Source: a virus
Lineage: Duplodnaviria; Caudoviricetes
Strand: one strand, 5' to 3'
Length of the DNA: 39,060 nucleotides
IMG/VR virus record: IMGVR_UViG_3300024283_000098
Coordinates: 1-39,060 of that record
The position numbers and the translations under genes are program-made. The notes under the pieces are model-generated. The model worked only from the letters and a program-made list of their open reading frames with translations. It searched no databases and was not told where the DNA came from. Each line of letters opens with the position of its first letter. The first letter of the stretch is position 1. Below are positions 9,442 to 28,809 of the stretch, piece after piece.

Positions 9442-11534
9442 TGGCAGACGACGCCTGGACACCGCCGGTCAGCTTCCTTGACAGCAATGGCGCGGTGATC
9501 CCGCCGGGTGAGGGCGGCGCGGGCCATGTCGGCGATGCGCAATGGTCACCGCCGGTGACCTTCCTTGACGAAAATGGCCAACCAACGCAGCCGGTCGGGG
9601 CGCCCGCCGCCGCGCCGCCATCGATCCTCAACAGCGGCTGGCGGGTGGCCGGGCAGCAGCTCTGGGACGCCGGCGCGCGCGGCGTCGGGCTCGGCGTGCG
9701 GGATGTGCTGGCGGGCGCCAGCGCGCCGCTGACCGGGCTGGCTGACCTGGTGACGTGGCCGACGCGCGTCGCGCAACGGGCCGCCGGTATTCCGACCACA
9801 GCGCCGTCCGACCTCGCCGCCAAGGTGATCGATGCCACCAATCTGCCGACACCGCAGACACCGACCGAAAAGAACATCTCGACGTTCAACCAGGGCGCCG
9901 CCGCCACGCTGCCGAGCCTGGTCGTGGGCGGCGTGCCGGCGCTGGCGGCGCGGGTGCCAACGGTTGCGGCGCCGTTGGTGGCCTCCCCGACAGCGAGCGC
10001 GCCGCAGGCGGTCCGGGCGCTGGCGACGGGCGGGGGTGGGGCGGTGGCCGGCGAGAAAGCCGCAGAGTCGCCGTACGTTCCGACCTATCTCAAGCCGTAC
10101 GCCAACCTGGCGGCCGGCATCGCCGCTGCCAGGTTCGCCGACGTGGGTCTGAACCTCGGCGGTAAAACCGTGAACGCCATCGCCGGCAACATGAGCCCGA
10201 CCTATGAGGCGTTCCGGCGGCAAGGCGTCGATACCAGCTTGCCGGGCACCGTGGCGGGCGGCGAAGCCGCGCAGTCCGTCGAAGGGTCAGCCACGCGGAT
10301 ACCGTTCGTGGCGTCGGCGCTACGGCCGGTGCAGCAACGCGTCATCGGGCAATTCGGCAATGCGGTGGAGCGCACCGCTGCTCAGTTGGACCCGGCCGGG
10401 ATTGGCGTCACGGCGCAGACGACCGGCGAGCATGTGCAGAACACCTATCGCAACTGGGTGGACAACATCTTCAACGGGCCGCAAGGCCGGCAAGCGGCGG
10501 CCTGGACCCCGCTCAATCAACGCATGGCCGGGGCCTCGGTCGATACGGCGCCATTCCGCACCGCGCTGACGGAGGCTGCGGCGCCGCCCGCCCTCAACAG
10601 CCTACCGGCAACCCAACAGGCGTGGGCCTCCGGGCAAGCACAACGGTGGCTCGCTGCACTGGACGCCGACATCGGCAGGAGCAACCTGAGCTGGGAACAG
10701 GCGCAGGCGATCCGCACCCGCATCGGCGACGCGATGGGCACGCCTGGTATCGTTGACGCGATCGGCATGCAGCAGTTGCGACGGATGTACGCCGGCCTCG
10801 CCGATGGCATGCAGCGAAGCGCGGTCGCGCACGGCCAGGGCGCGCTATTCGATAACGCCAATGCCGTCACCACGGCCGGCCACAATTTCATCGAGACTGT
10901 GGGGAGCAAGATCGCTAAGGCGAACAACCCGTTGCAGGAGACGGTGGCGCCCGAGCAGGCGACCAACAACATCCTGAACAGCGGCGATACGACCATGCAG
11001 GCGATCCGGCGGGAGCTGCCGGACGCCGCCGATGTGCTGGGAGCCTATAAGCTACGGCAGGCGCGGGCCGCCAAGCCATCGGTGGCAACCGCCTATGACG
11101 ACACCTCGACCGGCAGCTTCCTGTCGAACCTCAATCGCATGCGGCAGACCACGCCGGGCGGCTATGACGCGCTCTACAACACCCGCGCGATCCAGCAGCA
11201 CGTCGACGATCTGGCGACGATCGCGGGCCGGCTACGGCAAACCGAGAGGCATGTGAACACGTCCGGCACCAGCGAGCAGCAGGCATGGCAGAGCTACCTG
11301 ATGGCGCTCGCGGCGGCGGCTGGCAGCGGCAGCGGTACGGCCTTGGCTGGCGTCGCCGCCGGGGTGCCGGCGGCTGGGTGGGGCGTCGGCCGCGCGTTGA
11401 CCAGCCCCACGCTGACCCGCTTCGCCGCCGCTCGCGGACTGCCGCCGCCGATCCTGGCAAGTCCGGTGACGGGCCTGCTGGGCAGCGCCGCGAACATGCC
11501 GACCATCACAGTGCGGCCAGAGCGGCGTCAGTGA
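9438..11534 (+). CDS. Large ejection / internal virion protein
   Basis: 698 aa, Ala-rich; C-terminal NTSGT and hydrophobic segment; last gene of the ejection block. Confidence 0.72.
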   Translation: MMADDAWTPPVSFLDSNGAVIPPGEGGAGHVGDAQWSPPVTFLDENGQPTQPVGAPAAAPPSILNSGWRVAGQQLWDAGARGVGLGVRDVLAGASAPLTGLADLVTWPTRVAQRAAGIPTTAPSDLAAKVIDATNLPTPQTPTEKNISTFNQGAAATLPSLVVGGVPALAARVPTVAAPLVASPTASAPQAVRALATGGGGAVAGEKAAESPYVPTYLKPYANLAAGIAAARFADVGLNLGGKTVNAIAGNMSPTYEAFRRQGVDTSLPGTVAGGEAAQSVEGSATRIPFVASALRPVQQRVIGQFGNAVERTAAQLDPAGIGVTAQTTGEHVQNTYRNWVDNIFNGPQGRQAAAWTPLNQRMAGASVDTAPFRTALTEAAAPPALNSLPATQQAWASGQAQRWLAALDADIGRSNLSWEQAQAIRTRIGDAMGTPGIVDAIGMQQLRRMYAGLADGMQRSAVAHGQGALFDNANAVTTAGHNFIETVGSKIAKANNPLQETVAPEQATNNILNSGDTTMQAIRRELPDAADVLGAYKLRQARAAKPSVATAYDDTSTGSFLSNLNRMRQTTPGGYDALYNTRAIQQHVDDLATIAGRLRQTERHVNTSGTSEQQAWQSYLMALAAAAGSGSGTALAGVAAGVPAAGWGVGRALTSPTLTRFAAARGLPPPILASPVTGLLGSAANMPTITVRPERRQ

Positions 11535-11701
11535 TGCAGTTGCCACTGATCCCAGATGATCCATGCGGCGACGAACGGCGTGGCGATGACCCAGGTCCAC
11601 GGGGACGCCACGCACATCAGCAGCAGGGCCAGCGGCAACGGGCTGATAAAGATGGTGATGAAGGCCAGCACGACCACCCACCACCAGAACCAGAATTTCA
11701 T
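11528..11701 (-). CDS. Trp-rich two-TM membrane peptide (possible superinfection exclusion)
   Basis: MKFWFWWWVVVLAFITIFISPLPLALLLMCVASPWTWVIATPFVAAWIIWDQW; fills the gap antisense to the ejection genes. Confidence 0.55.
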   Translation of the reverse strand: MKFWFWWWVVVLAFITIFISPLPLALLLMCVASPWTWVIATPFVAAWIIWDQWQLHH

Positions 11702-11736
11702 GCCGGCCGTGTACCTGAAACGACCGGCCGTGCGCA

Positions 11737-11946
11737 ATGACCGATCCAGGCGGCGGCCTCATCGCCAACGTCAGCGACAAGCTGATCAAGGCGCTGCCGC
11801 CGGCCTTCTTGCTTTTGGTGCTGCTGAATATCGGCTTCCTCGGCATGGCGTCCTGGGTGTTCTCCCACAATTCTGAGCAGCGGAATGCGCTGCTGACCAA
11901 GATCGTGGAAAGCTGCCTGTTGGATCGCCGCTCGGCGCCGCCGTAG
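11737..11946 (+). CDS. Small single-TM membrane protein (holin-like?)
   Basis: ALPPAFLLLVLLNIGFLGMASWVF hydrophobic helix. Confidence 0.6.
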   Translation: MTDPGGGLIANVSDKLIKALPPAFLLLVLLNIGFLGMASWVFSHNSEQRNALLTKIVESCLLDRRSAPP

Positions 11947-11973
11947 ACTCGGCCGGCAACCCGGTGCGCCGTC

Positions 11974-12375
11974 ATGCCCCGCCGCATCAACACCGAGAGC
12001 TTCACGCGCGCCGCCAGCGATGGCCGCGCCAGCCAGCACAGCGCAGCGCGGCGGGGCTATCTCGACGCCGCTGCTGGGGCCGGGTTTTCCGGCTGGTATG
12101 AGGCGGCCAGCAAGGATGAGCAGTTGGCGTACGAAATCGGCCGCCACTGGGTCACCAACCTGCGCGCCGCCGGCATCACGCCGCCTCCCTGGCACGGCGA
12201 GGGGCCGCCACCGGAGGCGGTGCAGCGGGCCAATGTGCTGGCCAGCGCGCGCGGCGAGGGCTACGCCACCCCCTGGGGGGTGCTGGCGAACACCGACGAT
12301 CCGGTGGCGCTGGAACCGCTCAGGGTGCGGATCAGGAACCAGAACAGCCGGCGGCGCGGCGGCGGGCGGGCCTGA
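11974..12375 (+). CDS. Hypothetical protein
   Basis: High-GC3 ORF following the previous gene. Confidence 0.55.
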   Translation: MPRRINTESFTRAASDGRASQHSAARRGYLDAAAGAGFSGWYEAASKDEQLAYEIGRHWVTNLRAAGITPPPWHGEGPPPEAVQRANVLASARGEGYATPWGVLANTDDPVALEPLRVRIRNQNSRRRGGGRA

Positions 12376-12491
12376 TCCGGCGGCCGCCGTCCGCAAACCG
12401 CGATTATCGGACGGAACGTTTGGCGTGCCGGTTTCCCGGATTGGACTCCAGCCAACGCCAAAACTCCAAAACCGACCCAGCGGTGAACTGA

Positions 12492-13019
12492 TCATGGGCT
12501 GATCGCTGCAAACCGGCCCTGTTGCTGGCGGGATTTCAGCACTCTATCAGCCATGCGCTGCTGCATGACCTCCCTGGCAAACGCTAACCCCCTTTGCGCC
12601 AGGGTCGGGTCGGCCGCCCCTTGTCCAAAAGCAGCCTCAAGAGACTTCCTTATTCTTTTCTTACTTACTTTTGGCGTTGGCGCCGGAAACTTGCTGTAAT
12701 TGTCAGGCAGAAATCGATACTCGTTTGCGAGCTGGACCCAGCGTTTACCCTGTCGCCATTCGACCATCTCGAAGCGGTGACGCCGTTCAAGCAGTCCCAG
12801 GTTAATCAGCAGCGTGAGGCAGCGGGAGACCGTCTTGCGGGCGATCCGCAGGGCGCCGGTCAGATCATCATAGGAGCAGATCAGCCTGTCGGCGTCCGTC
12901 TCGCGCCCCTGTCCGTGGGCCAGGCTATCGAAGATCAGGAAGGCTTCTTTGGGCAGCACACGCATAGCGACGAGCCGGCGGCATTGGTCGATGCGGCGTT
13001 GGAGAAAGTTTGGTGTCAT
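12492..13019 (-). CDS. Plasmid-type replication initiator with winged HTH
   Basis: GGAGAGG RBS; CSYDDLTGALRIARKTVSRCLTLLINLGLLER HTH followed by RWVQLANEYRF; AT-rich tract in the 3' half. Confidence 0.65.
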   Translation of the reverse strand: MTPNFLQRRIDQCRRLVAMRVLPKEAFLIFDSLAHGQGRETDADRLICSYDDLTGALRIARKTVSRCLTLLINLGLLERRHRFEMVEWRQGKRWVQLANEYRFLPDNYSKFPAPTPKVSKKRIRKSLEAAFGQGAADPTLAQRGLAFAREVMQQRMADRVLKSRQQQGRFAAISP

Positions 13020-13024
13020 CGGTT

Positions 13025-13043
13025 CCTCTCCGTGATGGAGAGG
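13025..13043 (-). promoter_or_regulatory. Hairpin sequestering the rep Shine-Dalgarno
   Basis: Perfect 7-bp inverted repeat cctctcc-gtgat-ggagagg; one arm is the SD 5 nt before the ATG at 13019. Confidence 0.7.
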
Positions 13044-13106
13044 CGGCCCAAGAAAAAGATTGCACGACCCCGCAGCCAAACCGGCTTGATTTTAGGCGCT
13101 GGTTGT

Positions 13107-13205
13107 CCGATGTTTGGGGCAGCGGTAGGTGCTGTTTCATCCTGTTTCCGCAGGATGCCGAACATCGGTTACGGGGCGGTCCATGTGGCCGCCTCAACTG
13201 TTTCT
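13107..13205 (+). ncRNA. Candidate antisense (counter-transcribed) RNA upstream of rep
   Basis: TTGATT at 13086 with GATGTT 17 nt later; hairpins catcctg/caggatg and ggggcgg..ccgcctc followed by a T-rich tail; stem imperfections are G-U only on the + strand. Confidence 0.5.
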
Positions 13206-13630
13206 AGCTCATTCCTTCACTCCCGAATCGCCACGACAAAAGCGCGGCTGATCCGCGCTGGTGTCGGCGAGATTGCTACGATTCGCAACGCTCTGTCCCA
13301 CGGTTACGTACCGCTTCGCGAGGCGCGTGTATTTGTGCAACCTATGCACAGCCATGGGGCAGTCCTCAGTCTCGCTTCATGGTTAGGATCGCAGCCGGGG
13401 CGGAATCCCGGCTGCGGTCCGCCCCCAGTCTGCAACTAGAGCGCTCGTAGCCGCAACCCTCAGACGCATGCCGGTAAGAATTATTCGTTATTCAGGTGCG
13501 AGTCGGCCTATCCGCACGGCGCGTTTGCCGGAAATGGATAAGGTCAATTTGGTATGCCAACCGGCTTCGACTTCCTGAAACGGGCGAATCGACGTATCTT
13601 CATCGGTAAGCCTTGGGTCGTGACTCGGTT

Positions 13631-14080
13631 CTAGGTGCCTATGGCTAGACCCTTGTCCCCTCTGGTCAGGACCGTAGTCTGGGATTCCGCCTCGCTACGG
13701 TCCGCCCCCTCGCTAAGCGACAGGCGTACGCCCCGCAGCACCATCAACGCCGTTGCATCGATCGCCTGGCGCGTCGCTTTTGGCACGCCCCGCGTGCCAG
13801 CCAAGGCGCCGATCGCCGTTGCCACCGTGGCTAGGGTATCTGCCGGCGTGGGGCCAGAACTCGGTGGTTTGCTCGGTATGCGCTGGTCAGACAGCACCAG
13901 GGGGAGTGGTTTGCTCGGCATGTGCTGGTCTAACCGTAACGCCAGCGCTTCGGCGACCACCTGGGCGACGGGTATCTGGTGCCGCCGGGCGTAGGCGACC
14001 GCCTTGGCGCTCATGTCGCGCGGCATATCCTTGATCGTCCACGGACTCAGGACCGCACCATTCGGTTCGTCATCAGCCAT
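13631..14080 (-). CDS. Plasmid-like ribbon-helix-helix DNA-binding protein
   Basis: PWTIKDMPRDMSAKAVAYARRHQIPVAQVVAEAL RHH-like pattern; GGAG RBS. Confidence 0.6.
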   Translation of the reverse strand: MADDEPNGAVLSPWTIKDMPRDMSAKAVAYARRHQIPVAQVVAEALALRLDQHMPSKPLPLVLSDQRIPSKPPSSGPTPADTLATVATAIGALAGTRGVPKATRQAIDATALMVLRGVRLSLSEGADRSEAESQTTVLTRGDKGLAIGT

Positions 14081-14092
14081 TGTTTTACTCTC

Positions 14093-14122
14093 CGGTTTGC
14101 TCAGTCGCGACTTAGCAAACCG
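14093..14122. promoter_or_regulatory. 30-bp palindrome (probable operator)
   Basis: CGGTTTGCTCAGTCGCGACTTAGCAAACCG, one mismatched pair, directly upstream of the RHH gene. Confidence 0.6.
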
Positions 14123-14207
14123 TTACGTTGCCGCGTCAAGCCTGCTATTCAAAAGGCTGATTCTGGAGAGTAGCGTCCAAGCCGCCGGGCGATGGAGCGC
14201 GTGAGAT

Positions 14208-14393
14208 ATGCGGAGAAAGCATCTGACGGACGCCGAGTATCAGCAACTCGTGGCGGACAACGGTCGCCGCCTCGTGGACTACGTTCGGCGGCTGGACGAG
14301 CGCATCCAGCAAGCGAAAGAGCGCGAGCGGCAGCAGCGGCAGGCCAGGCGTGCGGCGGCGCTGGTGGCCCAGGCAGCACCACCCAGTGGCTGA
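14208..14393 (+). CDS. Hypothetical coiled-coil protein
   Basis: GGAG RBS, ORF track. Confidence 0.5.
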   Translation: MRRKHLTDAEYQQLVADNGRRLVDYVRRLDERIQQAKERERQQRQARRAAALVAQAAPPSG

Positions 14394-14643
14394 TGAGCGA
14401 CCGTCCCGGCGCGAGATGGAGGCGGCGGTTGAGCACCGGATCGTGGTGCAGATCGAAAAGCATTTTGGCCCGCTGCTCGATCTGCTGGCCACGCTTGACC
14501 CGCTGGAGTCCTATGCGTTGCTCGGCAACCTGATGGTCGAGACGGTGGCGCGCTTCCCGCCCGACCAGCGTCTGCAACTGGCGACCGCCTGGACGCGCAC
14601 GTTCCGCGAGGCGGTGCGGGATGGCCTGAACGCCCCCCCCTAG
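14386..14643 (+). CDS. Hypothetical protein (start 14386 GTG or 14416 ATG)
   Basis: Overlaps the previous stop; high GC3. Confidence 0.5.
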   Translation: MADERPSRREMEAAVEHRIVVQIEKHFGPLLDLLATLDPLESYALLGNLMVETVARFPPDQRLQLATAWTRTFREAVRDGLNAPP

Positions 14644-14870
14644 CGGGGCCTCTTGCGTGGCTTATCGAGACCCCAACGCTGAGCAATAGGAACGAGGGAA
14701 GCCGGGCGCCGCCCGGCTTGGGGGCGGGCTGTTATCATCAAGCCTCGCTCGATCAGCAGGCGGGCCATGGATGTGATGTGGCGGCCGTCGTTTTTCGCCA
14801 GTTTGTCGATCGCGTCCCAGAGGTCTTTGGTAATCCTGAGTTCCAACCGTTCTGTCGGCTCGTCGGACAT
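14640..14870 (-). CDS. Arc/CopG-like ribbon-helix-helix regulator
   Basis: RLELRITKDLWDAIDKLAKNDGRHITSMARLLIERGL; GGAGG RBS. Confidence 0.8.
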   Translation of the reverse strand: MSDEPTERLELRITKDLWDAIDKLAKNDGRHITSMARLLIERGLMITARPQAGRRPASLVPIAQRWGLDKPRKRPR

Positions 14871-14914
14871 GCCTTCAACCTCCCCTCATTTCAGCTCGGA
14901 AAAACGGACACGCG

Positions 14915-14946
14915 AAAAATCCCCCGCCACTGTCCAACGGCGGGGG
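14915..14946 (-). terminator. Probable intrinsic terminator downstream of int
   Basis: cccccgcc/ggcggggg stem followed by ATTTTT on the minus strand. Confidence 0.55.
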
Positions 14947-15154
14947 TAAGGCTGACTCAGTTCTCGGTAACCCGGTCACTCTAGCCGGCTGCTGACGGGC
15001 TGTCTTCCGCCCTGGCCGCCCTTTTCTCCTGCCACTCGGCGCCGGCAACGAACGCAGCGCGCAGCGCCCAGCCGAACCACATGAGGTTAGCCTTGTCGTC
15101 GGCGCGTGGGATCATCGACTGGACGAAGGCATAACCCGCCTCCGTCTTGGCCCA

Positions 15155-16345
15155 TCAGCGTGTCCCGGTGGCGCCGGGTTGGCGTGCGAACAGCCGGTCG
15201 ATCGCCTCGGCCGCCGCCTTGTCGTCGGCCGGCACGGCATGCGCATAGAGCGACAGCGTGGTTGCCAGGCTGCTGTGGCCGAGCCGGCGCGACACCACAT
15301 GGGCGCTGACGCCGCCCTCGCCGCCGAGCAGCAGGGTAGCGTGGGCGTGGCGCAGCGTGTGCAGGCTGCCGGGCAGACCGAGCGCGCGTAACGCCCGCAG
15401 CGCCGCCTGTGACGCCGCCTCGGGCGCCCACCAGCTACCGTCGTCGTTGGCGAACACCGGCACCGCCTCGATGCGCCGGCCGGTCGCGGGCGCCGCCAGC
15501 CGCGCCAGGCGCAGCGCGGCCAGCGCGAGCGCCGGCAGCGCGATGGTGCGCCGGCCGCTCGCCGTCTTGGGCTCTTTCAGCGCCGGCAGTTGGCCGCGTT
15601 GCTGGTCCAGCGAGGCGCCGATGGTCAGCGTGCCGCCCTTGAGGTCGATATTCTCCCAGGTCAGCCCGAGCAGCTCGCTGCGCCGCGCCCCGGTATAGGC
15701 GGCGAGCACCAGCAGCAGCCGCACGCGGGGTTGCGGGCACTCGGCCAGGCGGGACAGATCGGCGCGGCCGGGGGTGGCCGGCGGCCGGCGGATGGCGCGC
15801 GGCAGCTTGACGTGTGCCCACGGGTTGCGGTCCAGCATGCCGAGGCTGACCGCCTGGTCCAGCCCGGCGCGGACGAACACCACCGCGTCGCGCACGGTGC
15901 GCATCTTGTGCGGCGGCCGGTAGCCGCCCTTGTGGCGGCAAGGACCATAGGGCGTGGCGCAGCCGCAGCCGTCGGCCAGCCAGGGGATGAAGGCGCCGCC
16001 GTCGGCGGCGGTCAGCTCGCGCAGCCGGATCGCGCCGAGCGAGAACTGGCCGGGGTTGGCGTGATCGATCCAGGCGTCCAGATGGGTGCGGTAGGTGGCG
16101 ATGCTGCGCGGCGCCAGGTCGTGTGCACTGCTGACCAGATGGCGCAGCCAATCGCCCAGCGTGCAGTTCGGATCGAGCGGGCGCAGGTCGCTTTGCCGCA
16201 GCCAGCGGCGGGCGGCGGTCTCGGCCTCGGCGCGGCTGGCCGGCTGCGCCTTGCTGCCGACGCTGAAATAGAACGGTTGCAGCTTGCCGCGCCGGATGCG
16301 TACGGCGAACTGGCCGGGGGATCGTTCAGTGATCGTGAAACTCAT
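15155..16345 (-). CDS. int: Tyrosine recombinase / integrase
   Basis: TGARRSELLGLTW, PKTASG, HTLRHAHAT, RLGHSS, YAH catalytic motifs. Confidence 0.93.
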   Translation of the reverse strand: MSFTITERSPGQFAVRIRRGKLQPFYFSVGSKAQPASRAEAETAARRWLRQSDLRPLDPNCTLGDWLRHLVSSAHDLAPRSIATYRTHLDAWIDHANPGQFSLGAIRLRELTAADGGAFIPWLADGCGCATPYGPCRHKGGYRPPHKMRTVRDAVVFVRAGLDQAVSLGMLDRNPWAHVKLPRAIRRPPATPGRADLSRLAECPQPRVRLLLVLAAYTGARRSELLGLTWENIDLKGGTLTIGASLDQQRGQLPALKEPKTASGRRTIALPALALAALRLARLAAPATGRRIEAVPVFANDDGSWWAPEAASQAALRALRALGLPGSLHTLRHAHATLLLGGEGGVSAHVVSRRLGHSSLATTLSLYAHAVPADDKAAAEAIDRLFARQPGATGTR

Positions 16346-16579
16346 GTGAATCGGCCTTCGGGCAGCGGGCGGTGTCACAGGTGGACAACCTAGGTGACTC
16401 ATACCGCTTGCGTATTCTGTGCGCAACACCGCACAGCCGCGCACACCCGCGCACAACTCCCGGCTTTAAATTGTTACCCAACGGTTGCACACATTTCCGC
16501 CCCCAGCCTACCGTGGCAGCTTCCGCCACGAGGGACACCCCAAACCACTCATCCGGAACGAACAGGGGGGCTGCTCGGG

Positions 16580-16801
16580 ATGCATGATCTGATCGAGTCG
16601 CGCCAAGCCGCGATTCGGATGGCCCAATCGCCACTGGTGACGCAAAACCACGCCGCCACCCTCGCCCACCTGACCCGCCGCCAGATCGCCGAACTGGTCC
16701 GCGACGGCCAACTCGCCTCAATGCAGGTCGGCCGGCTGCGCTACGTGCTGCGCTGGTCGCTCGATGATCTGCTGCGCGCGCTCGATGGCCGCCCGGCTTG
16801 A
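16580..16801 (+). CDS. Excisionase-like HTH protein
   Basis: AATLAHLTRRQIAELVRDGQLASMQVGRLRYV; divergent from int. Confidence 0.7.
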   Translation: MHDLIESRQAAIRMAQSPLVTQNHAATLAHLTRRQIAELVRDGQLASMQVGRLRYVLRWSLDDLLRALDGRPA

Positions 16802-17825
16802 TCCCGACCAGGTGAAGGCGCTGCTGGCGGCATCCGCCGATGACGTGCTGGCGCGCGTGCTGCCCGGCGGCAAAATCACCGGCAACGAATACCGCGCCAG
16901 CGGACCCGACGGTTCCACCTGGGCCGTGGTGGTGCGCGGCAGCAAAACCGGCGCCTGGCAGTGCTACGGCGCCGCCGGTGTCGCCGGGCGCTCGTTCCTC
17001 AGTCTGATCCGCGACGCCGCTTGCCAGGGCGATCATGTCGCGGCGTTCAAGTGGGCACTGTATTTCGTCGGCGGCGACGACAACCGGGCACGCCTGCCGC
17101 CGCCGCGCTCGGTGCCGATCGCCGCCGCGCCGACCACCGAAGCCGCGCCGGACAACGGCATGGGGATGTATTTGCACGCGAAAGAGTTCGACTGGGATAA
17201 CCCGGTCGGGCTCTATCTGCGCGGGCGCGGCATCGATCCGGCCGCGATCGAACCGCCGGCCGCGCTGCGCTTCCACCCGGAGCTCTGGTGCGCCGAGCGA
17301 CAAAAGCGACTGCCGGCGATGCTCGCGCCCATCATTCACTGCACAGCGGGACAACAGACCGCGATTCATCGCACCTGGCTGGAACCGTTTTCCCCGTTTG
17401 GCTGGCGCAAGGCGCAGTTGGAAACCCCGAAGAAAGTGCGGGGGCCGTACAAGGGAGGCATCATCCCGCTGCTGCGCGGACCCTCGCGCAAGCGCTGGCG
17501 CCAGGCGCCCGAGGGCGATCATCTGTTGCTCGCCGAGGGCATCGAGAACGCGCTCTCGGTGGCGCAACTCGAACCCGACTGGCGCGCCATCGCCTATGTC
17601 GCGGCGAACAATTTGTTGGAGCTCCGCTTGCCCGCCGTGTTCACCAGCGTCTGCCTGGTGGCCGATCGCGACGGCGAGAACTGGTCGGTCACCGAGGACC
17701 GCGATATCGCCCGCGAGCAATGGCGCGGCGAGGGCCGCGCGGTGTTCGACTGGACGCCGCCGGAAGGCGCGAAAGACGCCAACGATTTCATCAGGGAGAC
17801 GCGCCGTGAACAACTCGACGCTTGA
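16785..17825 (+). CDS. Toprim-domain primase
   Basis: YLRGRGI..LRFHP..AIHRTWL; LLLAEGIENALS; VADRD; KDAND. Confidence 0.85.
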   Translation: MAARLDPDQVKALLAASADDVLARVLPGGKITGNEYRASGPDGSTWAVVVRGSKTGAWQCYGAAGVAGRSFLSLIRDAACQGDHVAAFKWALYFVGGDDNRARLPPPRSVPIAAAPTTEAAPDNGMGMYLHAKEFDWDNPVGLYLRGRGIDPAAIEPPAALRFHPELWCAERQKRLPAMLAPIIHCTAGQQTAIHRTWLEPFSPFGWRKAQLETPKKVRGPYKGGIIPLLRGPSRKRWRQAPEGDHLLLAEGIENALSVAQLEPDWRAIAYVAANNLLELRLPAVFTSVCLVADRDGENWSVTEDRDIAREQWRGEGRAVFDWTPPEGAKDANDFIRETRREQLDA

Positions 17826-18466: not shown

Positions 18467-19105
18467 ATGCCGGGCTTGCTCGATCCAACTGACGATGCTG
18501 CCGACCAGTGGGACGCGGCGCCGTTTGGTGCGCCAAGTTACGTCATCGCTCAGGGCGCACTCGGTTCCCGTGTGCCGCGAGACACGATGCCGGACAGTCC
18601 GCGGTATCTGGAAGACTTGGATGTAGCGCCTGGTCCCCGACCGCAGAGTGAGGAAGACCAGGCGCTGGATGCCGTGTTTGTGCAGAAACAGCAGCTTAAA
18701 AATCAAATCGATATGGCTGAACAACAGATGAAACAACTGCCTTTAGGCTCGCCTGAGCGGGATAAGGCTTACGATCAGTGGGTCGGCATGATCAAGCAGT
18801 TTGGTCAGTTGAATGATCAGTTCAAAAACACACTCCCTGGGGCATGGTCCCAGCGCCTTGTCGGCGTGAATCAGAACCGAGGTCCTGATGTGAACACGAT
18901 GATGGACGCGATCCAGAACCGCCAGGCGCAGCCGCGCCAGCCATTATCGCCCCCGGCGCCGGGGGGTGTGCCGTACGCCCCGACGCCGATCGCGCCGCCG
19001 CCGGCAACCTCGGGGCTAACCTCATTCAACGATGATCCAACGGCCATCATGTCGCACTACCTCCGCACGACACTGGCGCAGCTCAAGAACGGCCGCCGCG
19101 TGTGA
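18467..19105 (+). CDS. Hypothetical protein with ejection-protein-like N-terminus
   Basis: GGAGG RBS; MPGLLDPTDDAADQW resembles the start of 7099. Confidence 0.6.
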   Translation: MPGLLDPTDDAADQWDAAPFGAPSYVIAQGALGSRVPRDTMPDSPRYLEDLDVAPGPRPQSEEDQALDAVFVQKQQLKNQIDMAEQQMKQLPLGSPERDKAYDQWVGMIKQFGQLNDQFKNTLPGAWSQRLVGVNQNRGPDVNTMMDAIQNRQAQPRQPLSPPAPGGVPYAPTPIAPPPATSGLTSFNDDPTAIMSHYLRTTLAQLKNGRRV

Positions 19106-21012
19106 CCGACGAGCCGCCGAAACCGCCAACGGAGGAAAAACCGGAAAACGTCGAACGGCTGGCCGATCATCGCCGCCGCCGGCCGTCGCGCCTGGTCAAC
19201 GTCACCAACGACCAACCCGCCGTGGCCGCCCGACTGGCCCAGGTGCATGCCCTGCTCGGTCCCGACGTGCCCTATGAGCCGGTCGGGTTCGACGGAACGC
19301 ATTACTGGGTGATCGACAGCGAGCGACACCTTCGCGCCAGCGCCGCGCGTGATCTCGGTGGCGCGCAGCTTGATTCGATTTGCGGTGCCGCGCCGTTCCT
19401 GCGCAACCGCTATCCCCGGATGCGCAACGGCAAGCCGGTGGAGGGCTTCGTCGCCGATCGCGCGCGGCGTGAGCTGATGAACGCCTGTCACCTGATGGGC
19501 TATTGGGAGCCACGCAATATCCGCTCGGTGGGCGCCTGGCTCGGCGCGGACGGCGATCTGATCCTGCACCGGGGTGACCATCTGTTTATCAACGGCCAGA
19601 TGCGCCCGCTCGGCCGGGTTGGCGAATTCGTCTACATCCCCGGCCCGCCGCTGCCGCCGCTACCCAAAGTGATCAAGACGATGGACCCGGCCGGCGAATT
19701 GCTCGACCGGCTGGAAACCTTCGGCTTCGCGCGCGGCACGTTCGACGCGTCGATGGTGCTGGCGCTAATCTGCGCCGCGATGTTGAGCGGGGCGCTGAAA
19801 TTCCGCCCGCATGGTTTTTTTGTCGGCGAAATGGGGCTTGGCAAATCGACCCTGCAAGCGTTCATTCTGGCGGTACTCGGTGCCAACGGCATCGTCGCCA
19901 TTACCGACGCCACGGCGGCCGGTATCTGGCAGGCGTTGCGCAATCGCTCAATTGCCGTGGGTTATGACGAATTCGAGGCTGAGGCGGACCCGAAAAAACA
20001 AGACCGGGTGATCGCGCTGGCGCGGCAAGCCAGTACCGGCGGCGTGCTGCGCCGGGGCTCCAGCCAGCACGTCGGCAGCGAGTTCCCGATCCTGTCCAGC
20101 TTCCTGCTGTCCGCCATCATCGCGCCGCCGCTGAAATCCGAGGACGCGTCGCGGTTCGTGCCTATCACCATGGTCAAGGCAAGCTTCCCGCGCGCGCCGT
20201 TCTCACTGGACCGGCTGGAACGGCTCGGGCTGGAACTGACCGCTGTCCTGGCCGCGCGCTGGCGATTGCTGACCGATAGCGTGCTGCCTGAGCTGCGCGC
20301 GCTGATGGCGGCCCAAGACAAGGGCGGCCGGCTGACCGATCTGTATGGCACGCTGCTCGGGCTGGTGTCGGTGGCGCTGTACGATGACCTCGGGCGGATG
20401 AACCTGGCCGGCCGGCTGGCCAGCCACCATATGACGCGGCTGCTGGCCGATGCGGCGGAGGATCAATTGCCGGAATACCGCCGCTGCATCGATCGGTTGC
20501 TGGCGCATCGCACGGAAAAGAATCGCCCTACCAGCACGCAACTCGGCGAGCTCATTGCCATGGTCGCGGGCGTGCTGGCCAATCCTGCCACCCGGATGCA
20601 GGCGTCGCTGTTGGGTGACGATGAGGACGTGAGCGATGACAGCGAGCCCGACCGGATGGCCTTTGCCAGGCGACAGTTGGCGGCCTTCGGGCTCAAGGTC
20701 GTGGCGCTGAGCGGCGACAACAGGGCCGCCAACATCGTGCTGCAAGTGGCGCACAATAATCCGCAGTTGGCGGAGGTGTTCGAGGATACCCGCTGGCGCA
20801 GCATGCCCGAATCGGCGACGGGTGGCGGTTGGACTCAGGCGCTGAAACGGGCGCCCGAGGCCAGTCTTGGCAGGACGCGGTTTCGCGGCGTGCTGTCACG
20901 CTGCGTCAATGTGCCGATGGCGCTGGTGCTCCAGCCGGGCAACGCGCCCCGGCCGGGCGAACAGCGGCCGGCAGACGAACAGCCCGGCGACGCGGCCGGG
21001 CTGCTGCATTAG
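19102..21012 (+). CDS. Primase-associated P-loop NTPase / replicative helicase
   Basis: Walker A GEMGLGKST, Walker B VGYDEFE, DASRF; follows the primase. Confidence 0.8.
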   Translation: MTDEPPKPPTEEKPENVERLADHRRRRPSRLVNVTNDQPAVAARLAQVHALLGPDVPYEPVGFDGTHYWVIDSERHLRASAARDLGGAQLDSICGAAPFLRNRYPRMRNGKPVEGFVADRARRELMNACHLMGYWEPRNIRSVGAWLGADGDLILHRGDHLFINGQMRPLGRVGEFVYIPGPPLPPLPKVIKTMDPAGELLDRLETFGFARGTFDASMVLALICAAMLSGALKFRPHGFFVGEMGLGKSTLQAFILAVLGANGIVAITDATAAGIWQALRNRSIAVGYDEFEAEADPKKQDRVIALARQASTGGVLRRGSSQHVGSEFPILSSFLLSAIIAPPLKSEDASRFVPITMVKASFPRAPFSLDRLERLGLELTAVLAARWRLLTDSVLPELRALMAAQDKGGRLTDLYGTLLGLVSVALYDDLGRMNLAGRLASHHMTRLLADAAEDQLPEYRRCIDRLLAHRTEKNRPTSTQLGELIAMVAGVLANPATRMQASLLGDDEDVSDDSEPDRMAFARRQLAAFGLKVVALSGDNRAANIVLQVAHNNPQLAEVFEDTRWRSMPESATGGGWTQALKRAPEASLGRTRFRGVLSRCVNVPMALVLQPGNAPRPGEQRPADEQPGDAAGLLH

Positions 21013-22128: not shown

Positions 22129-23052
22129 TCACGCGGCAAGCAATGCCGCGCTTGGTTGTGCGTCATGCAAGAATGACGCGGCGCGGTCCGCCGCACTGGC
22201 GGCCGTGAAAATCGCCCGGTTGTCGGTTTTCAGGACCGCGAGCCAATTGGCCAGATAGTCGGCATGGTCCGCGCGCGGTGCGTCCGATATGGCCAAGTCA
22301 GCGCACAGGAAGGCACTGCCTAACTCTGCAACGAGCTCTTCCATTGCATAAGCGTTATCGCCGAACCGCTTACCGAACGGCCTAGCGCACCGTGACTCAT
22401 GGCCCGTCCAATGGATCGCCTCATGCGCCAGCGTGGCATAGTAGGACTCGGCCGAGTTGAACGCGGCGAGCTCAGGCATGCGCACCGCGTCAAGCGAGGG
22501 GGCGTAAAATGCCCTGTCGCCACCGTGCGCCAACCGCACGCCAGCGTCAGCGAAAAATGCGTCCACGACACCGTTGCGCGCGTGCGGGCAGACTGGCGCC
22601 GGCATATCAACCGGCGCCGCGATGGGCGCGAAACGTGCCGGCAAACCGTCAATCTCACTGGCATTAAAGACGTGGTAGCATTTCAGAAACGAGATTGTCT
22701 GACCGTCGCTCGTTTCGCCCGGTGTCGCCGGTGTGTCCGCGCCCTTGATCGTGGTCTGACCGACATAAAACGCGAATTCGCCCCGCGCGCCCTTGCGCAC
22801 CTGACCACCGAGCTCTTGCGCGCCCTTGTAGGTCATCCAATGGCGTGACGTGAGTCCGCGCATCTGCGCCGCGCACCATAGATTGATCACGTTCATGCCC
22901 TTGTAAGCCTGACCGTTGGCGCGCAGCGGCCGCTGCATCGCGCCGGTAATGGTTGGGAAACTGCCATCCCATGACTTTTGCCAGGGCTTGGTGCCCGCCT
23001 CTAGCATTGCCACGATACGGTCCGTGACTTGCTGGTAAACCTCGGTTTTCAC
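22129..23052 (-). CDS. ardC: ArdC-family anti-restriction ssDNA-binding / zincin-like protein
   Basis: YQQVTDRIVAMLEAGTKPWQKSW, YKGMN, WMTYKGAQELGGQVRKG, HEAIHWTGHESR, YAMEELVAELGSAFL. Confidence 0.92.
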   Translation of the reverse strand: MKTEVYQQVTDRIVAMLEAGTKPWQKSWDGSFPTITGAMQRPLRANGQAYKGMNVINLWCAAQMRGLTSRHWMTYKGAQELGGQVRKGARGEFAFYVGQTTIKGADTPATPGETSDGQTISFLKCYHVFNASEIDGLPARFAPIAAPVDMPAPVCPHARNGVVDAFFADAGVRLAHGGDRAFYAPSLDAVRMPELAAFNSAESYYATLAHEAIHWTGHESRCARPFGKRFGDNAYAMEELVAELGSAFLCADLAISDAPRADHADYLANWLAVLKTDNRAIFTAASAADRAASFLHDAQPSAALLAA

Positions 23053-23102
23053 GCTCTTTACTCCGTTGCCTTGTTGACGAACAAACATTTAGGGAATTGT
23101 CT

Positions 23103-23181
23103 AAGCGGACACAATGACCGCTTATGCATAGCAGCCATGCAAAGCGGACGTATTGACCGCTTATGTGCGAGCCATTAGATA
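23103..23181 (+). promoter_or_regulatory. Two palindromic operators overlapping a sigma70-like promoter
   Basis: AAGCGGAC-N4-TGACCGCTT at 23103 and 23142; TTGACC-17-TAGATA. Confidence 0.65.
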
Positions 23182-23212: not shown

Positions 23213-23437
23213 GTGTATGACTTGGCACATGAAAACGAAGCGCCCGGCCAGTGCGGCAAGTGTCGCGGCACGGGGGTTTATTCTTGGGGCGCGTGCGTCA
23301 ATGGCAAGATGGAGAAGTCTGGCCGCTGCAATTCCTGCGGCGGCACCGGGCGGCAGACCATGCGCGACATGATGCGCAATCGCACCTATAACATGCACAA
23401 GATTGCACGCATGTGCGACGGATGGGGAGGCCGCTGA
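23213..23437 (+). CDS. DnaJ-type zinc-finger small protein
   Basis: CGKCRGTG and CNSCGGTG motifs; GGAG RBS. Confidence 0.7.
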   Translation: MYDLAHENEAPGQCGKCRGTGVYSWGACVNGKMEKSGRCNSCGGTGRQTMRDMMRNRTYNMHKIARMCDGWGGR

Positions 23438-23744: not shown

Positions 23745-23784
23745 AAGCGGACGTATTGACCGCGTGTATGGCAGTCATTAGATT
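23745..23784 (+). promoter_or_regulatory. Third operator/promoter copy
   Basis: AAGCGGACGTATTGACCGCGT; TTGACC-17-TAGATT. Confidence 0.65.
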
Positions 23785-24730: not shown

Positions 24731-24800
24731 GCCCGTTCCCCATGCGCCCGAGTGTGGTAGGATTAGCGCGCTGGCTATCGGTGCTCCGATCGAACGGGGC

Positions 24801-25062
24801 GTGACAGTGTGACAGTCGAGGGTTTCCGACCGTCACGCTTTTCTTAGCCAGACTACCAAAAGCGTGACGATGTGACGGTTGTGACAGTGAATTTGCGCGC
24901 TCAGTGCAAACCAACGGCCTCGCGCGGGAGTCTATACCCCGCGCGCGTGCGTACGCGTGAGAGCACGAAAACACTGTCACACCTGTCACACTGTCACGCT
25001 TTTTATCACACAGTGAAATCCGGCAATTCCTACTGTCACGCTTCCTCGTCACACCTGTCACA
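24801..25062. repeat. GTGAC(A/G)/(T/C)GTCAC iteron cluster, probable replication origin
   Basis: About 12 copies; mostly GTGAC on the left (24801-24886) and GTCAC on the right (24975-25061). Confidence 0.65.
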
Positions 25063-27100: not shown

Positions 27101-27820
27101 ATGATCCCGGCCGACGTGCTCAACGAGGCGTCACGCCTGGCGCTCGCGGCCGGGGTCAAAATTCTGCAAGGCTTCCGCCTCGCTGACACCGATGCGGCGC
27201 ATGTCGCACGGTTGTTGGATTACATGCAGCCCGAGGCGGGCGAGACCTGGGTCGATATCGGCTGCGGTTTCGGCGAGGTGGCGCGACTGATGCACGCGGC
27301 CTGTCCCGACCTCAACTTCATCTTGGTCAACAATAACTATTTCCAACTGTCGCACGCGCCACGCGATTTCCTGCAACTGCACGCCGACATGCACGACCTG
27401 CCGCTGGAGGACGAAAGCGCCGATGGCTGCATGCTGCTGTATGCGCTGTGCCATGCCGAGCCGTTTGAGATGGCGCTGCGCGAAGCCGCCCGCGTGACAC
27501 GGCGCGGTGGGCGCTTACTGGTGTTCGATTACGAGCGGTTGCCCGACCAAACGCGGCCGACACATCCCGGCGGCGCGGCGCATGTGCCGGACTATGGGCT
27601 GGCTGACCCGAACCGGTTGATGCGCGAGCGGCTATTTGCGCGGGCAGTTCCGTTCGATGAGATGGTGGCAATTGCCGACATTGCCGGCTGGACGGTCGAC
27701 TGGCACGAAAACCCCGATGGCTGCGATGACGTGTTTCGCATGCTGTACGGCAACGATGAGGAATACGCCCGGATATTCGATGATCTACGGCCGGTGATCT
27801 GGACGGCAGTGCGGCGATGA
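27101..27820 (+). CDS. Class I SAM-dependent methyltransferase
   Basis: WVDIGCGFG motif I; ADMHDLPLEDESADG; REAARVTRRGGRLLVFD. Confidence 0.88.
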   Translation: MIPADVLNEASRLALAAGVKILQGFRLADTDAAHVARLLDYMQPEAGETWVDIGCGFGEVARLMHAACPDLNFILVNNNYFQLSHAPRDFLQLHADMHDLPLEDESADGCMLLYALCHAEPFEMALREAARVTRRGGRLLVFDYERLPDQTRPTHPGGAAHVPDYGLADPNRLMRERLFARAVPFDEMVAIADIAGWTVDWHENPDGCDDVFRMLYGNDEEYARIFDDLRPVIWTAVRR

Positions 27821-27838
27821 GTCCGCCCGAGGTGTCCC

Positions 27839-28072
27839 ATGTGTTTTAGTGTTGCGTGGCTGGTGCAACTCCTGGTCTGGTTGGTCGTGGTGTGCGGGCT
27901 TGTGGCGATCGCCATGCTGCTGCTGCCCATCCTGCTCGGTTGGCTCGGCTGGGCCGGCAGCATCGCCATGCAGGTCATCCGCATTGTGGTTGCGGTGATC
28001 GTCATCGTGTTCATCATCTATTTCTTATTCGACTTATACCAATGCGCCTTGGGCCGGCCGCTGCTGAGATGA
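27839..28072 (+). CDS. Two-TM membrane protein
   Basis: GAGG RBS; two long hydrophobic helices. Confidence 0.7.
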   Translation: MCFSVAWLVQLLVWLVVVCGLVAIAMLLLPILLGWLGWAGSIAMQVIRIVVAVIVIVFIIYFLFDLYQCALGRPLLR

Positions 28073-28809
28073 GCCCGATCGATCTGTCGCCGCTGGACCG
28101 GCACGAAAAGATTTGCCTAGCCTGGTCAGGCGGGAAAGATTCAACCGCCGTCCTGCACATGCTTCGTCACGAATTGCACCGTATCATTGTTTATCACTGC
28201 GATACGGGCGATCTTCTCCCGGAAATGCGCGAACACATCGCGATGTTTGAGGATGCCATTCCGAATTTCGTGCGCGTGCAGACCAACGTCGCCGCGTGGA
28301 ACATCGAACACGGCCTGCCGACCGATCTGATGCCGCACAGTCAGGATCGCGTCGGCCGGATGATGGGCGAGCACAAAATCCTGCTGACCTCGCGCTATGA
28401 TTGCTGCGTTGCGAACCTGATGGACCCGCTCTGGCAGCGCGTGAAAGCGGACGGCAACACGCTGCTGATCCGGGGTACCAAATCGGTCGACATGAAGCGA
28501 CTGCCGATGCAAAGCGGCGACGTGCAAGAGGGTATCGAGCTCTACTATCCGCTACAGGAATGGTCGCACGCTGACGTGTTCGCCTACCTGCGCGAGCATG
28601 GCATTCCGCTGCCACGGCTTTATCAGCACGTCACGAATGCGCCCGAGTGTGCGCGCTGCACCGCCTGGTGGCGTGAGGGACGTGGCGCCTATCTGGCGCA
28701 GTACTATCCCGATCTGGCGCGCGACTATCAGGCCCGGCTGAAGCTGGTCGCGGCGGAAATCGGCCCATCGATCGACGCGCTCGGCGGCGAACTTAGCGCC
28801 GGGCTCTGA
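28069..28809 (+). CDS. PAPS/APS-reductase-family PP-loop protein
   Basis: AWSGGKDS, CDTGD, CC-X80-CARC, YPLQEWSHADVFAYL. Confidence 0.85.
   Translation: MSPIDLSPLDRHEKICLAWSGGKDSTAVLHMLRHELHRIIVYHCDTGDLLPEMREHIAMFEDAIPNFVRVQTNVAAWNIEHGLPTDLMPHSQDRVGRMMGEHKILLTSRYDCCVANLMDPLWQRVKADGNTLLIRGTKSVDMKRLPMQSGDVQEGIELYYPLQEWSHADVFAYLREHGIPLPRLYQHVTNAPECARCTAWWREGRGAYLAQYYPDLARDYQARLKLVAAEIGPSIDALGGELSAGL

Follow-up and report, generated by a model that had tools for sequence, protein, structure and literature searches.

Organization of the cassette

The stretch of DNA analyzed here (the window, 39,060 nucleotides) is one linear IMG/VR record, 97% complete, of a phage found in soil metagenomes; a contig of 41,268 bases encodes the same proteins. 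The window contains the virion and packaging genes looked for in phage-plasmids (SU10-type portal and capsid, terminase, tail and ejection proteins) and also encodes a tyrosine integrase, a Toprim primase, a helicase-like protein, ArdC and a GcrA-like protein. In its lysogeny region, between the lysis genes and the integrase, lies a three-part block consisting of a winged-helix gene, a structured leader of 611 nt and a gene for an RHH-like protein with a palindrome upstream. The features of this cassette and its surroundings, with L048, G471 and G473 denoting the related phage sequences described below, are:

12492..13019, minus strand: winged-helix protein, 175 aa, likely an HTH_36-like plasmid replication initiator (from the ORF, model, family and plasmid context)
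13025..13043, minus strand: 7-bp hairpin over the ribosome-binding site (GGAGAGG) of the winged-helix gene (rep)
13060..13205, plus strand: predicted antisense RNA of ~110 nt, with TTGCAC box, branched stem and terminator-like hairpin
13334..13350, no strand assigned: pair of DnaA-box-like 9-mers (2 and 1 mismatches), candidate origin element
13386..13420, no strand assigned: GC-rich 14-bp hairpin, its 7-nt loop inverted relative to L048 (1276-1310), the arms kept
13631..14080, minus strand: RHH-like protein, 149 aa, with a variable N-terminal predicted DNA-binding domain and a conserved C-terminal helical part
13866..13918, plus strand: two extra operator half-sites inside the RHH gene, at 13866 and 13908
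14093..14122, no strand assigned: candidate palindromic operator immediately ahead of the RHH gene, 15-nt arms, 93% complementary
14134..14173, no strand assigned: 41-nt conserved stretch at the outer cassette edge, possibly a promoter, 90% identity to L048
14640..14870, minus strand: Arc-like repressor outside the cassette (PHROG 3431, E 8.7e-7)
15155..16333, minus strand: tyrosine integrase (Pfam PF00589, E 2e-16; PHROG 1, E 1e-52; 64-66% to G471)
16580..16801, plus strand: excisionase-like HTH protein, divergent from the integrase (TIGR01764, E 0.0065, below cut-off; 81% to G471)
16764-17825, plus strand: Toprim primase, a separate lytic replication gene, also in G471 and G473
19102-21012, plus strand: helicase-like protein, a separate lytic replication gene, also in G471 and G473

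The original prediction had described the block as a plasmid-like replicon of lower GC content, composed of a winged-helix gene, ~600 nt of hairpin-rich noncoding DNA and an RHH gene with a palindromic operator, separate from the main replication genes and without ParA. Much of this description holds. The winged-helix gene, 12492-13019(-), adjoins a structured gap of 611 nt (13020-13630), and the block is apart from the primase (16764-17825), the helicase-like gene (19102-21012) and a group of GTGACA repeats (~24800-25060). The ParA-type Walker A motif is absent from all six frames of the window and of a 1.3-kb extension in contig L005, a scan that left about 0.9 kb of the 41.3-kb genome unseen, and there is no toxin-antitoxin pair among the ORFs scanned in the window. 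The GC claim stands only in part: the block has a GC content of 0.602 versus 0.653 overall, but the dip is modest, with 5.4% of windows of equal size being as low and the lowest of them (0.574) located near 23350. The RHH gene itself has a GC content of 0.656, and the low value of the block comes mostly from the leader. We rejected low GC as a sign of recent capture, given the modest dip and the composition of the L048 rep and RHH genes (0.63 and 0.64), which is close to that of G471 (0.645).

A chimeric assembly of plasmid and phage, which had been named as a possible refutation, has a negligible probability. Public contigs span the block and both its edges without a difference, at a depth equal to that of the flanks: one contig of 15.6 kb covers 10500-17508 without a difference, another covers 10500-15034, and contigs in X3, X4 and X6 likewise cross both edges. 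Three of the public runs used in this check may be the source of the window; apart from this, we found no point in favor of a chimera, and an independent homolog of the block is present in a sister phage. Contigs that cross the block at flank depth thus argue against both a chimera and a separate plasmid of higher copy number.

The winged-helix protein and its plasmid relatives

The AlphaFold model of the winged-helix protein (mean pLDDT 77) contains a winged helix at residues 3-103, with a long wing and C-terminal helices. A fold search with this model recovered generic winged helices (TFE, Z 9.6; DnaB N-terminus, 8.2; RepA_N, 8.0) and does not part regulators from initiators, a distinction that genome context does make. 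The search of PDB sequences gave weak regulator matches only; weak matches to Crp, GntR and MarR were obtained for the protein or its family, and one homolog weakly matches O-like phage initiators. The comparison with plasmid Rep families that had been proposed as a check gave a divided answer, with no Foldseek match at E <=0.001 but a profile-profile match to HTH proteins of small plasmids (95.5%, E 1.4e-8). Pfam HTH_36 (PF13730) does not match the window protein at the curated cut-off; 3 of 20 family members match it weakly, five distant relatives pass the cut-off, and the Atlas neighbors of the protein are HTH_36 clusters at 0.95. The family comprises 13 matches among 1.84 billion representatives, or 44 when a profile is used. 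In a tree of 40 rows, the window protein and a protein of Lichenicola plasmid 7 fall into one clade of 21 rows (support 99/96), and the identity of the window protein to plasmid proteins is low, about 30-38%.

The relatives are found in plasmid settings. On the complete Lichenicola plasmid NZ_CP053714 (plasmid 7), which has ParAB, a T4SS, a relaxase and ArdC and no annotated Rep, the sole candidate for an initiator belongs to the family (profile E 3e-48). In the record of Lichenicola plasmid unnamed7 (L006), we noticed an unlisted family member of 212 aa that runs over the start of the record and is followed by two facing DnaA-like boxes, probably the missing rep and origin of that plasmid. 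Run over 2701 frames at 11 plasmid loci, which had been selected because family members had matched them, the family profile of 58 rows picks a single gene at each of 10 loci and misses pGE1. Six whole records (three Lichenicola plasmids, pYBL2-1, pAC5 and pGO128) show no other annotated Rep in the PLSDB gene tables, which are incomplete; pGO128 additionally carries a VapE-family gene with a possible part in replication, and on pAC5 the two annotated genes besides the family member encode a transposase and a resolvase. Furthermore, the family gene lies beside parA on two further Lichenicola plasmids, and on Sphingobium plasmids it is located between trb genes and antirestriction/kleE/korA-like genes, which is the place of trfA in IncP-1.

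Distant relatives were detected in 31 of 401 Acetobacteraceae genomes. Within 1.5 kb of 15 of the 28 loci fetched, a scan over a greedy selection of ORFs found genes for ParA, MobA, TraD, toxin-antitoxin, ArdC, resolvase or RepB-primase, with ParA at 6 of the 28. A relative adjoins another annotated RepA in three plasmids and one genome locus, and could thus be an accessory gene; the three closest genome matches are broken genes. According to the available text of PMC3832669, pAES1 and pAES7 have HTH_36 REP modules that were shown to replicate in Alphaproteobacteria, and the available text of PMC6209633 lists two small plasmids whose REP type is HTH_36; the portions of PMC5144681 and PMC8102297 at hand do not tie the Sphingobium or the pAC5/pGO128 genes to a tested Rep. 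The plasmid Rep reading accordingly draws on relatives that are the sole initiator candidate on complete plasmids, and is weakened by the miss of Pfam HTH_36 and by the relatives found beside RepA. We consider the winged-helix protein probably to be an HTH_36-like Rep.

The leader

The sense strand of the leader folds at z -3.67 (0/20 shuffles as good), and the stretch 13085-13215(+) at z -3.43 (0/200 shuffles as good). The hairpin over the ribosome-binding site of rep has an identical stem and a different loop in L048, with a similar hairpin in L049; it is suggestive only, because GC-rich leaders fold easily. On the opposite strand, the candidate antisense RNA would comprise a TTGCAC -35-like box at 13060, a branched stem at ~13107-13171 and a terminator-like hairpin at 13173-13205. 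This is the best-conserved part of the leader, each 50-nt bin retaining 40-45 of its bases in L048. No canonical sigma-70 promoter was called for the candidate RNA, and no Rfam family, ctRNA families included, matches the leader at threshold. The corresponding stretch of L048 takes a different minimum-energy fold, and the two leader sequences are too few for covariation.

The search for iterons found no array in 13020-13630, and a strict pattern found no CtrA box. At the place of the two DnaA-box-like 9-mers, L048 has a perfect DnaA box; since the window contains 16 DnaA boxes at <=1 mismatch, conservation alone counts for 13334-13350. Judging from the two sequences, the loop difference at 13386-13420 is a small hairpin-mediated inversion. 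A degenerate 47-nt copy (70%) of this region is present at 13663-13709, at the end of the RHH gene. An Rfam match of the same hairpin to the R1162 antisense RNA was dismissed as chance (22-25 bits against a threshold of 55; E 0.76 and 2.6 in the two homologs, on the sense strand).

The repC and repABC replicons employ a counter-transcribed RNA mechanism. The cassette resembles them in its predicted antisense RNA and in the stem-loop ahead of the initiator gene, but has neither RepC homology nor an Rfam ctRNA match. By analogy with repC-type replicons, we infer that the leader features would fit antisense rather than iteron control.

The RHH-like protein and its operator

For the claimed RHH gene with a palindromic operator, the gene (13631-14080, minus strand), the palindrome (14093-14122) and a predicted RHH-like dimer are in place, but a Pfam RHH match is missing from all 13 family rows; Atlas RHH rows appear at 0.87 only. 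The monomer model is poor (pLDDT 58). Residues 5-58 were predicted to form a homodimer with a score of 0.53 versus 0.02 for the best control, the runs agreeing in >=88% of contacts with pLDDT >=73; the mark applied is reached by 20 of 30 solved homo-pairs and by 1 of 23 single chains. The contacts are RHH-like, with residues 11-19 paired in antiparallel and helix 38-50 packed on helix 38-50, and likeness to solved RHH dimers may drive this result.

Among twelve homologs of the protein, the C-terminus is largely shared, whereas the N-terminus comes in at least four types. Two of these homologs reside on contigs of the same lengths as those with Rep homologs (2,672 and 10,713 bases), which suggests linkage. 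All four copies of the operator half-site in the window (<=1 mismatch) fall within 13600-14200, two upstream of the gene and two inside it; as 4 of 65 tiles hold any such four-copy motif, this statistic is by itself a modest one. In L048, both the N-terminal type and the palindrome are different, the palindrome again occurring upstream of and inside the gene, so that the predicted binding domain and the operator differ together between homologs. The RHH protein likely represses its own promoter, whereas a role as a centromere-binding or immunity factor is speculative. In distant plasmid relatives, a small gene is located between parA and rep; thus, an ancestral parA-RHH-rep module from which parA was lost may have given rise to the cassette.

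Conservation in related phages

In the proposed test for the block in related phages, L048, a contig from a metagenome scan, proved to carry the whole unit, and the more distant relative G473 is without the block at that spot. The winged-helix proteins of L048 and the window are 74% identical and the RHH proteins 44% over 117 aa, and the leaders share 390 of 477 positions (82%) versus 64% at four-fold sites (66 sites). For rep, dN/dS is 0.32 at dS 0.54, with open frames in both phages. By these comparisons, the cassette is under purifying selection. Homology between L048 and the window ends sharply at 14173 on one side and at the stop codon of rep (12498) on the other.

The left end of L048 matches the end of G471 at 95% over 327 nt, just downstream of the G471 integrase. 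G471 is a sister phage (terminase 92%, integrase 64-66% to the window) and ends at this overlap, its cassette position thus being beyond its end. Because L048 overlaps G471 just past the integrase, the cassette belongs to this phage lineage. G473 (38 kb, 92% complete, terminase 68%) has the gene order of the window; neither the rep nor the RHH profile matches it, and there are only ~550 nt between its lysis-side membrane gene and its integrase. The cassette, present in the window and L048 and absent in G473, is thus an optional module of the lineage. Closer homologs are also found on contigs of 41.6, 42.9 and 65.1 kb, and a contig of 58.6 kb has a close homolog as well. Scans of IMG/VR with the Rep and with the RHH alignment yielded no relative, Rep had no match among 50,697 phage records, and a 16-base leader pattern matched 41 loci, none of them homologous further.

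The integrase, other phage genes and the host

The integrase contains all of the R, K, HxxR, H and Y motifs, which we take to be the catalytic set of tyrosine integrases, and judged by its sequence it looks intact. Integration and dimer resolution are the integrase uses named in the available part of PMC7969092. No tRNA gene was found in the window. Searches for attP on both integrase flanks gave chance-level matches in 201 and 301 genomes, the true host not being among them, and no integrated junction was found in eight runs, whose contigs drop rare forms. In G473, which has a second integrase-like gene, a stretch of 44 bases upstream of the integrase (L119 13205-13248), likely attP, is identical to the 5' portion of tRNA-Pro(GGG) in the Acetobacteraceae genome G010. 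The window has no such tRNA fragment. In the window, a 76-nt element with a terminator-like hairpin (14914-14989), 83% conserved in G471 right after the integrase, is a candidate terminator, small RNA or att site. Directly after the integrase stop codon, a short frame (14981-15154) absent from G471 looks like a gene remnant or insertion.

Elsewhere in the window, the GTGACA-type repeats at 24800-25060 form two groups facing each other (46-nt inverted arms, 80%); they lie ahead of the gene for the probable small terminase and are likely a lytic origin or packaging site. A 39-nt direct repeat (85%) at 23142-23180 and 23745-23783, ahead of small early genes, probably represents repeated promoters. 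The genes for a methyltransferase and a PAPS-reductase-domain protein (27101-28809), just ahead of the terminase, are present in G471 and were not found in G473; they are possibly a DNA modification pair. A plasmid-type anti-restriction gene, ardC (22129-23088), is shared by the window, G471 and G473, and is thus a second plasmid-associated gene of the lineage.

The best matches of ArdC are mostly from alphaproteobacterial plasmids, and together with the G473 fragment identical to tRNA-Pro of an Acetobacteraceae genome they make an alphaproteobacterial host likely. GANTC sites number 63 against 125 expected in the whole window, about half, and such scarcity often goes with CcrM hosts. As a plasmid, the phage is absent from PLSDB and was found in 0 of 401 sampled alphaproteobacterial genomes. 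Capsid relatives in 5 of 401 Acetobacteraceae genomes share only 24-34% identity, with no cassette in the flanks fetched.

Proposed function of the cassette

We consider it probable, with some reserve, that the cassette works as a plasmid-type replicon that keeps the prophage as a low-copy circle, which would make the virus a phage-plasmid with a retained integrase. Theta replication would start with the winged-helix protein binding an origin that lies within the leader or next to it, perhaps together with host DnaA at 13334-13350. Translation of rep would be held down by the ribosome-site hairpin and by the counter-transcribed RNA of ~110 nt, setting the copy number without iterons. An RHH dimer would bind the palindrome 14093-14122 and the two sites in its own gene, repressing its own promoter, and may also have a centromere-binding or immunity role, its specificity being swappable. 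Lytic replication would fall to the separate primase and helicase, and the integrase could still integrate the genome in hosts with a suitable site, or resolve circle dimers. The three modes of the original prediction (integration, controlled plasmid maintenance, lytic replication) may thus all be available to the phage. A bolder version, which we put forward tentatively and regard as somewhat unlikely, is that this lineage of alphaproteobacterial podophages alternates between integration and plasmid lysogeny via an undescribed antisense-controlled winged-helix replicon, with the single RHH protein, bound to sites within its own gene, serving as an ATPase-free partition or incompatibility system of swappable classes.

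The cassette might instead be a regulatory or immunity module, with a winged-helix transcription factor, an RHH repressor and a leader control RNA, in a phage whose lysogeny is by integration only. The generic fold and the weak Crp, GntR and MarR matches fit this reading, as do the relatives adjoining other RepA genes, the four or more N-terminal types that the RHH proteins combine with a common C-terminus (a pattern like that of immunity specificities), the intact-looking integrase and excisionase and the lack of ParA. It is nevertheless unlikely, given that relatives are the sole initiator candidate on pAC5 and three Lichenicola plasmids, that the neighbors of the family are plasmid backbone genes, not regulated operons, and that the phage has other repressor-like genes. 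The replicon could also work and be used only briefly, holding or amplifying the circle after entry or excision with no stable plasmid lysogeny. Such use would be in line with a 41-kb low-copy circle that has no partition ATPase or addiction module, with the kept integrase and with the homolog that weakly matches O-like phage initiators; yet tight copy control should be of little benefit for short amplification, lytic replication already has the primase and helicase, and G473 does without the cassette, so we regard brief use as distinctly unlikely.

The original prediction had also offered capture of a cryptic plasmid. As a one-off event, this is not the best reading, because the cassette occupies the same position in the sister phage and is under purifying selection. 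That a captured replicon is now hitchhiking or decaying appears highly improbable: its absence from G473 at this spot, the sharp homology ends at 12498 and 14173, a dN/dS of 0.32 that is not very low and the broken relatives in genomes are outweighed by the frames kept open in both phages at dS 0.54, the conservation of the leader beyond neutral sites, the shared position in two phages and the GC content of the L048 rep and RHH genes (0.63 and 0.64), near the 0.645 of G471.

Relation to known replicons and phages

Phages with both integrated and episomal states are already known, P4 being an example. The searched literature, with most subscription papers outside the search, gave no description of the window cassette. 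The closest parallels differ in what they share with it. Like the HTH_36 REP modules of pAES1, pAES7, pMARC3 and pMOS2, as far as described in the available text of PMC3832669, the cassette has one small HTH initiator, a noncoding region upstream and an alphaproteobacterial setting; the kinship runs via the profile to the HTH proteins of pAC5 and pGO128. The origins of those modules have iteron-like direct repeats according to the same text (PMC3832669), whereas the cassette is without them, falls below the Pfam cut-off and resides in a phage.

Like phage-plasmids, as portrayed in the available parts of PMC7969092 and PMC12977533, the window is from a temperate dsDNA phage that has all the virion genes and, distinct from lytic replication, an initiator of plasmid type (here likely, by context). 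Phage-plasmids are typically without integrase and with partition systems in the text available for PMC12977533; the window phage, by contrast, has an integrase and excisionase and no ParA, and, unlike phage-plasmids, this ~41 kb podophage has a Rep type that misses the standard profiles. As it falls below the Pfam cut-off, lacks iterons and ParA and retains an integrase, the cassette is placed neither in the HTH_36 iteron REP family nor among typical phage-plasmids.

The elements phiC725A, phi80b and phi84b (PMC7969092, available part) likewise combine an integrase with possible extrachromosomal persistence, which for the window phage is a prediction; they are listed there among elements without recognizable plasmid functions, whereas the window has a discrete plasmid-derived cassette. 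The repA-parABS prophages of Cluster A mycobacteriophages (PMC7157519, available part) resemble it in having a swappable central cassette for prophage replication and an HTH RepA transcribed against the virion genes. In the same source (PMC7157519), however, the Cluster A cassette replaces the integrase and has ParA and ParB, whereas the window cassette lies beside the integrase and has the RHH protein only.

To conclude, screens for phage-plasmids use known replicase profiles, which the Rep of the window misses. If the cassette replicates, it would reveal a class of small phage-plasmids that current screens call ordinary integrating phages, assign a role to a Rep clade that is unannotated on Acetobacteraceae plasmids, and provide a compact 1.7-kb replicon with swappable specificity. 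The related phages with and without the cassette make the gain of plasmid lysogeny directly testable.
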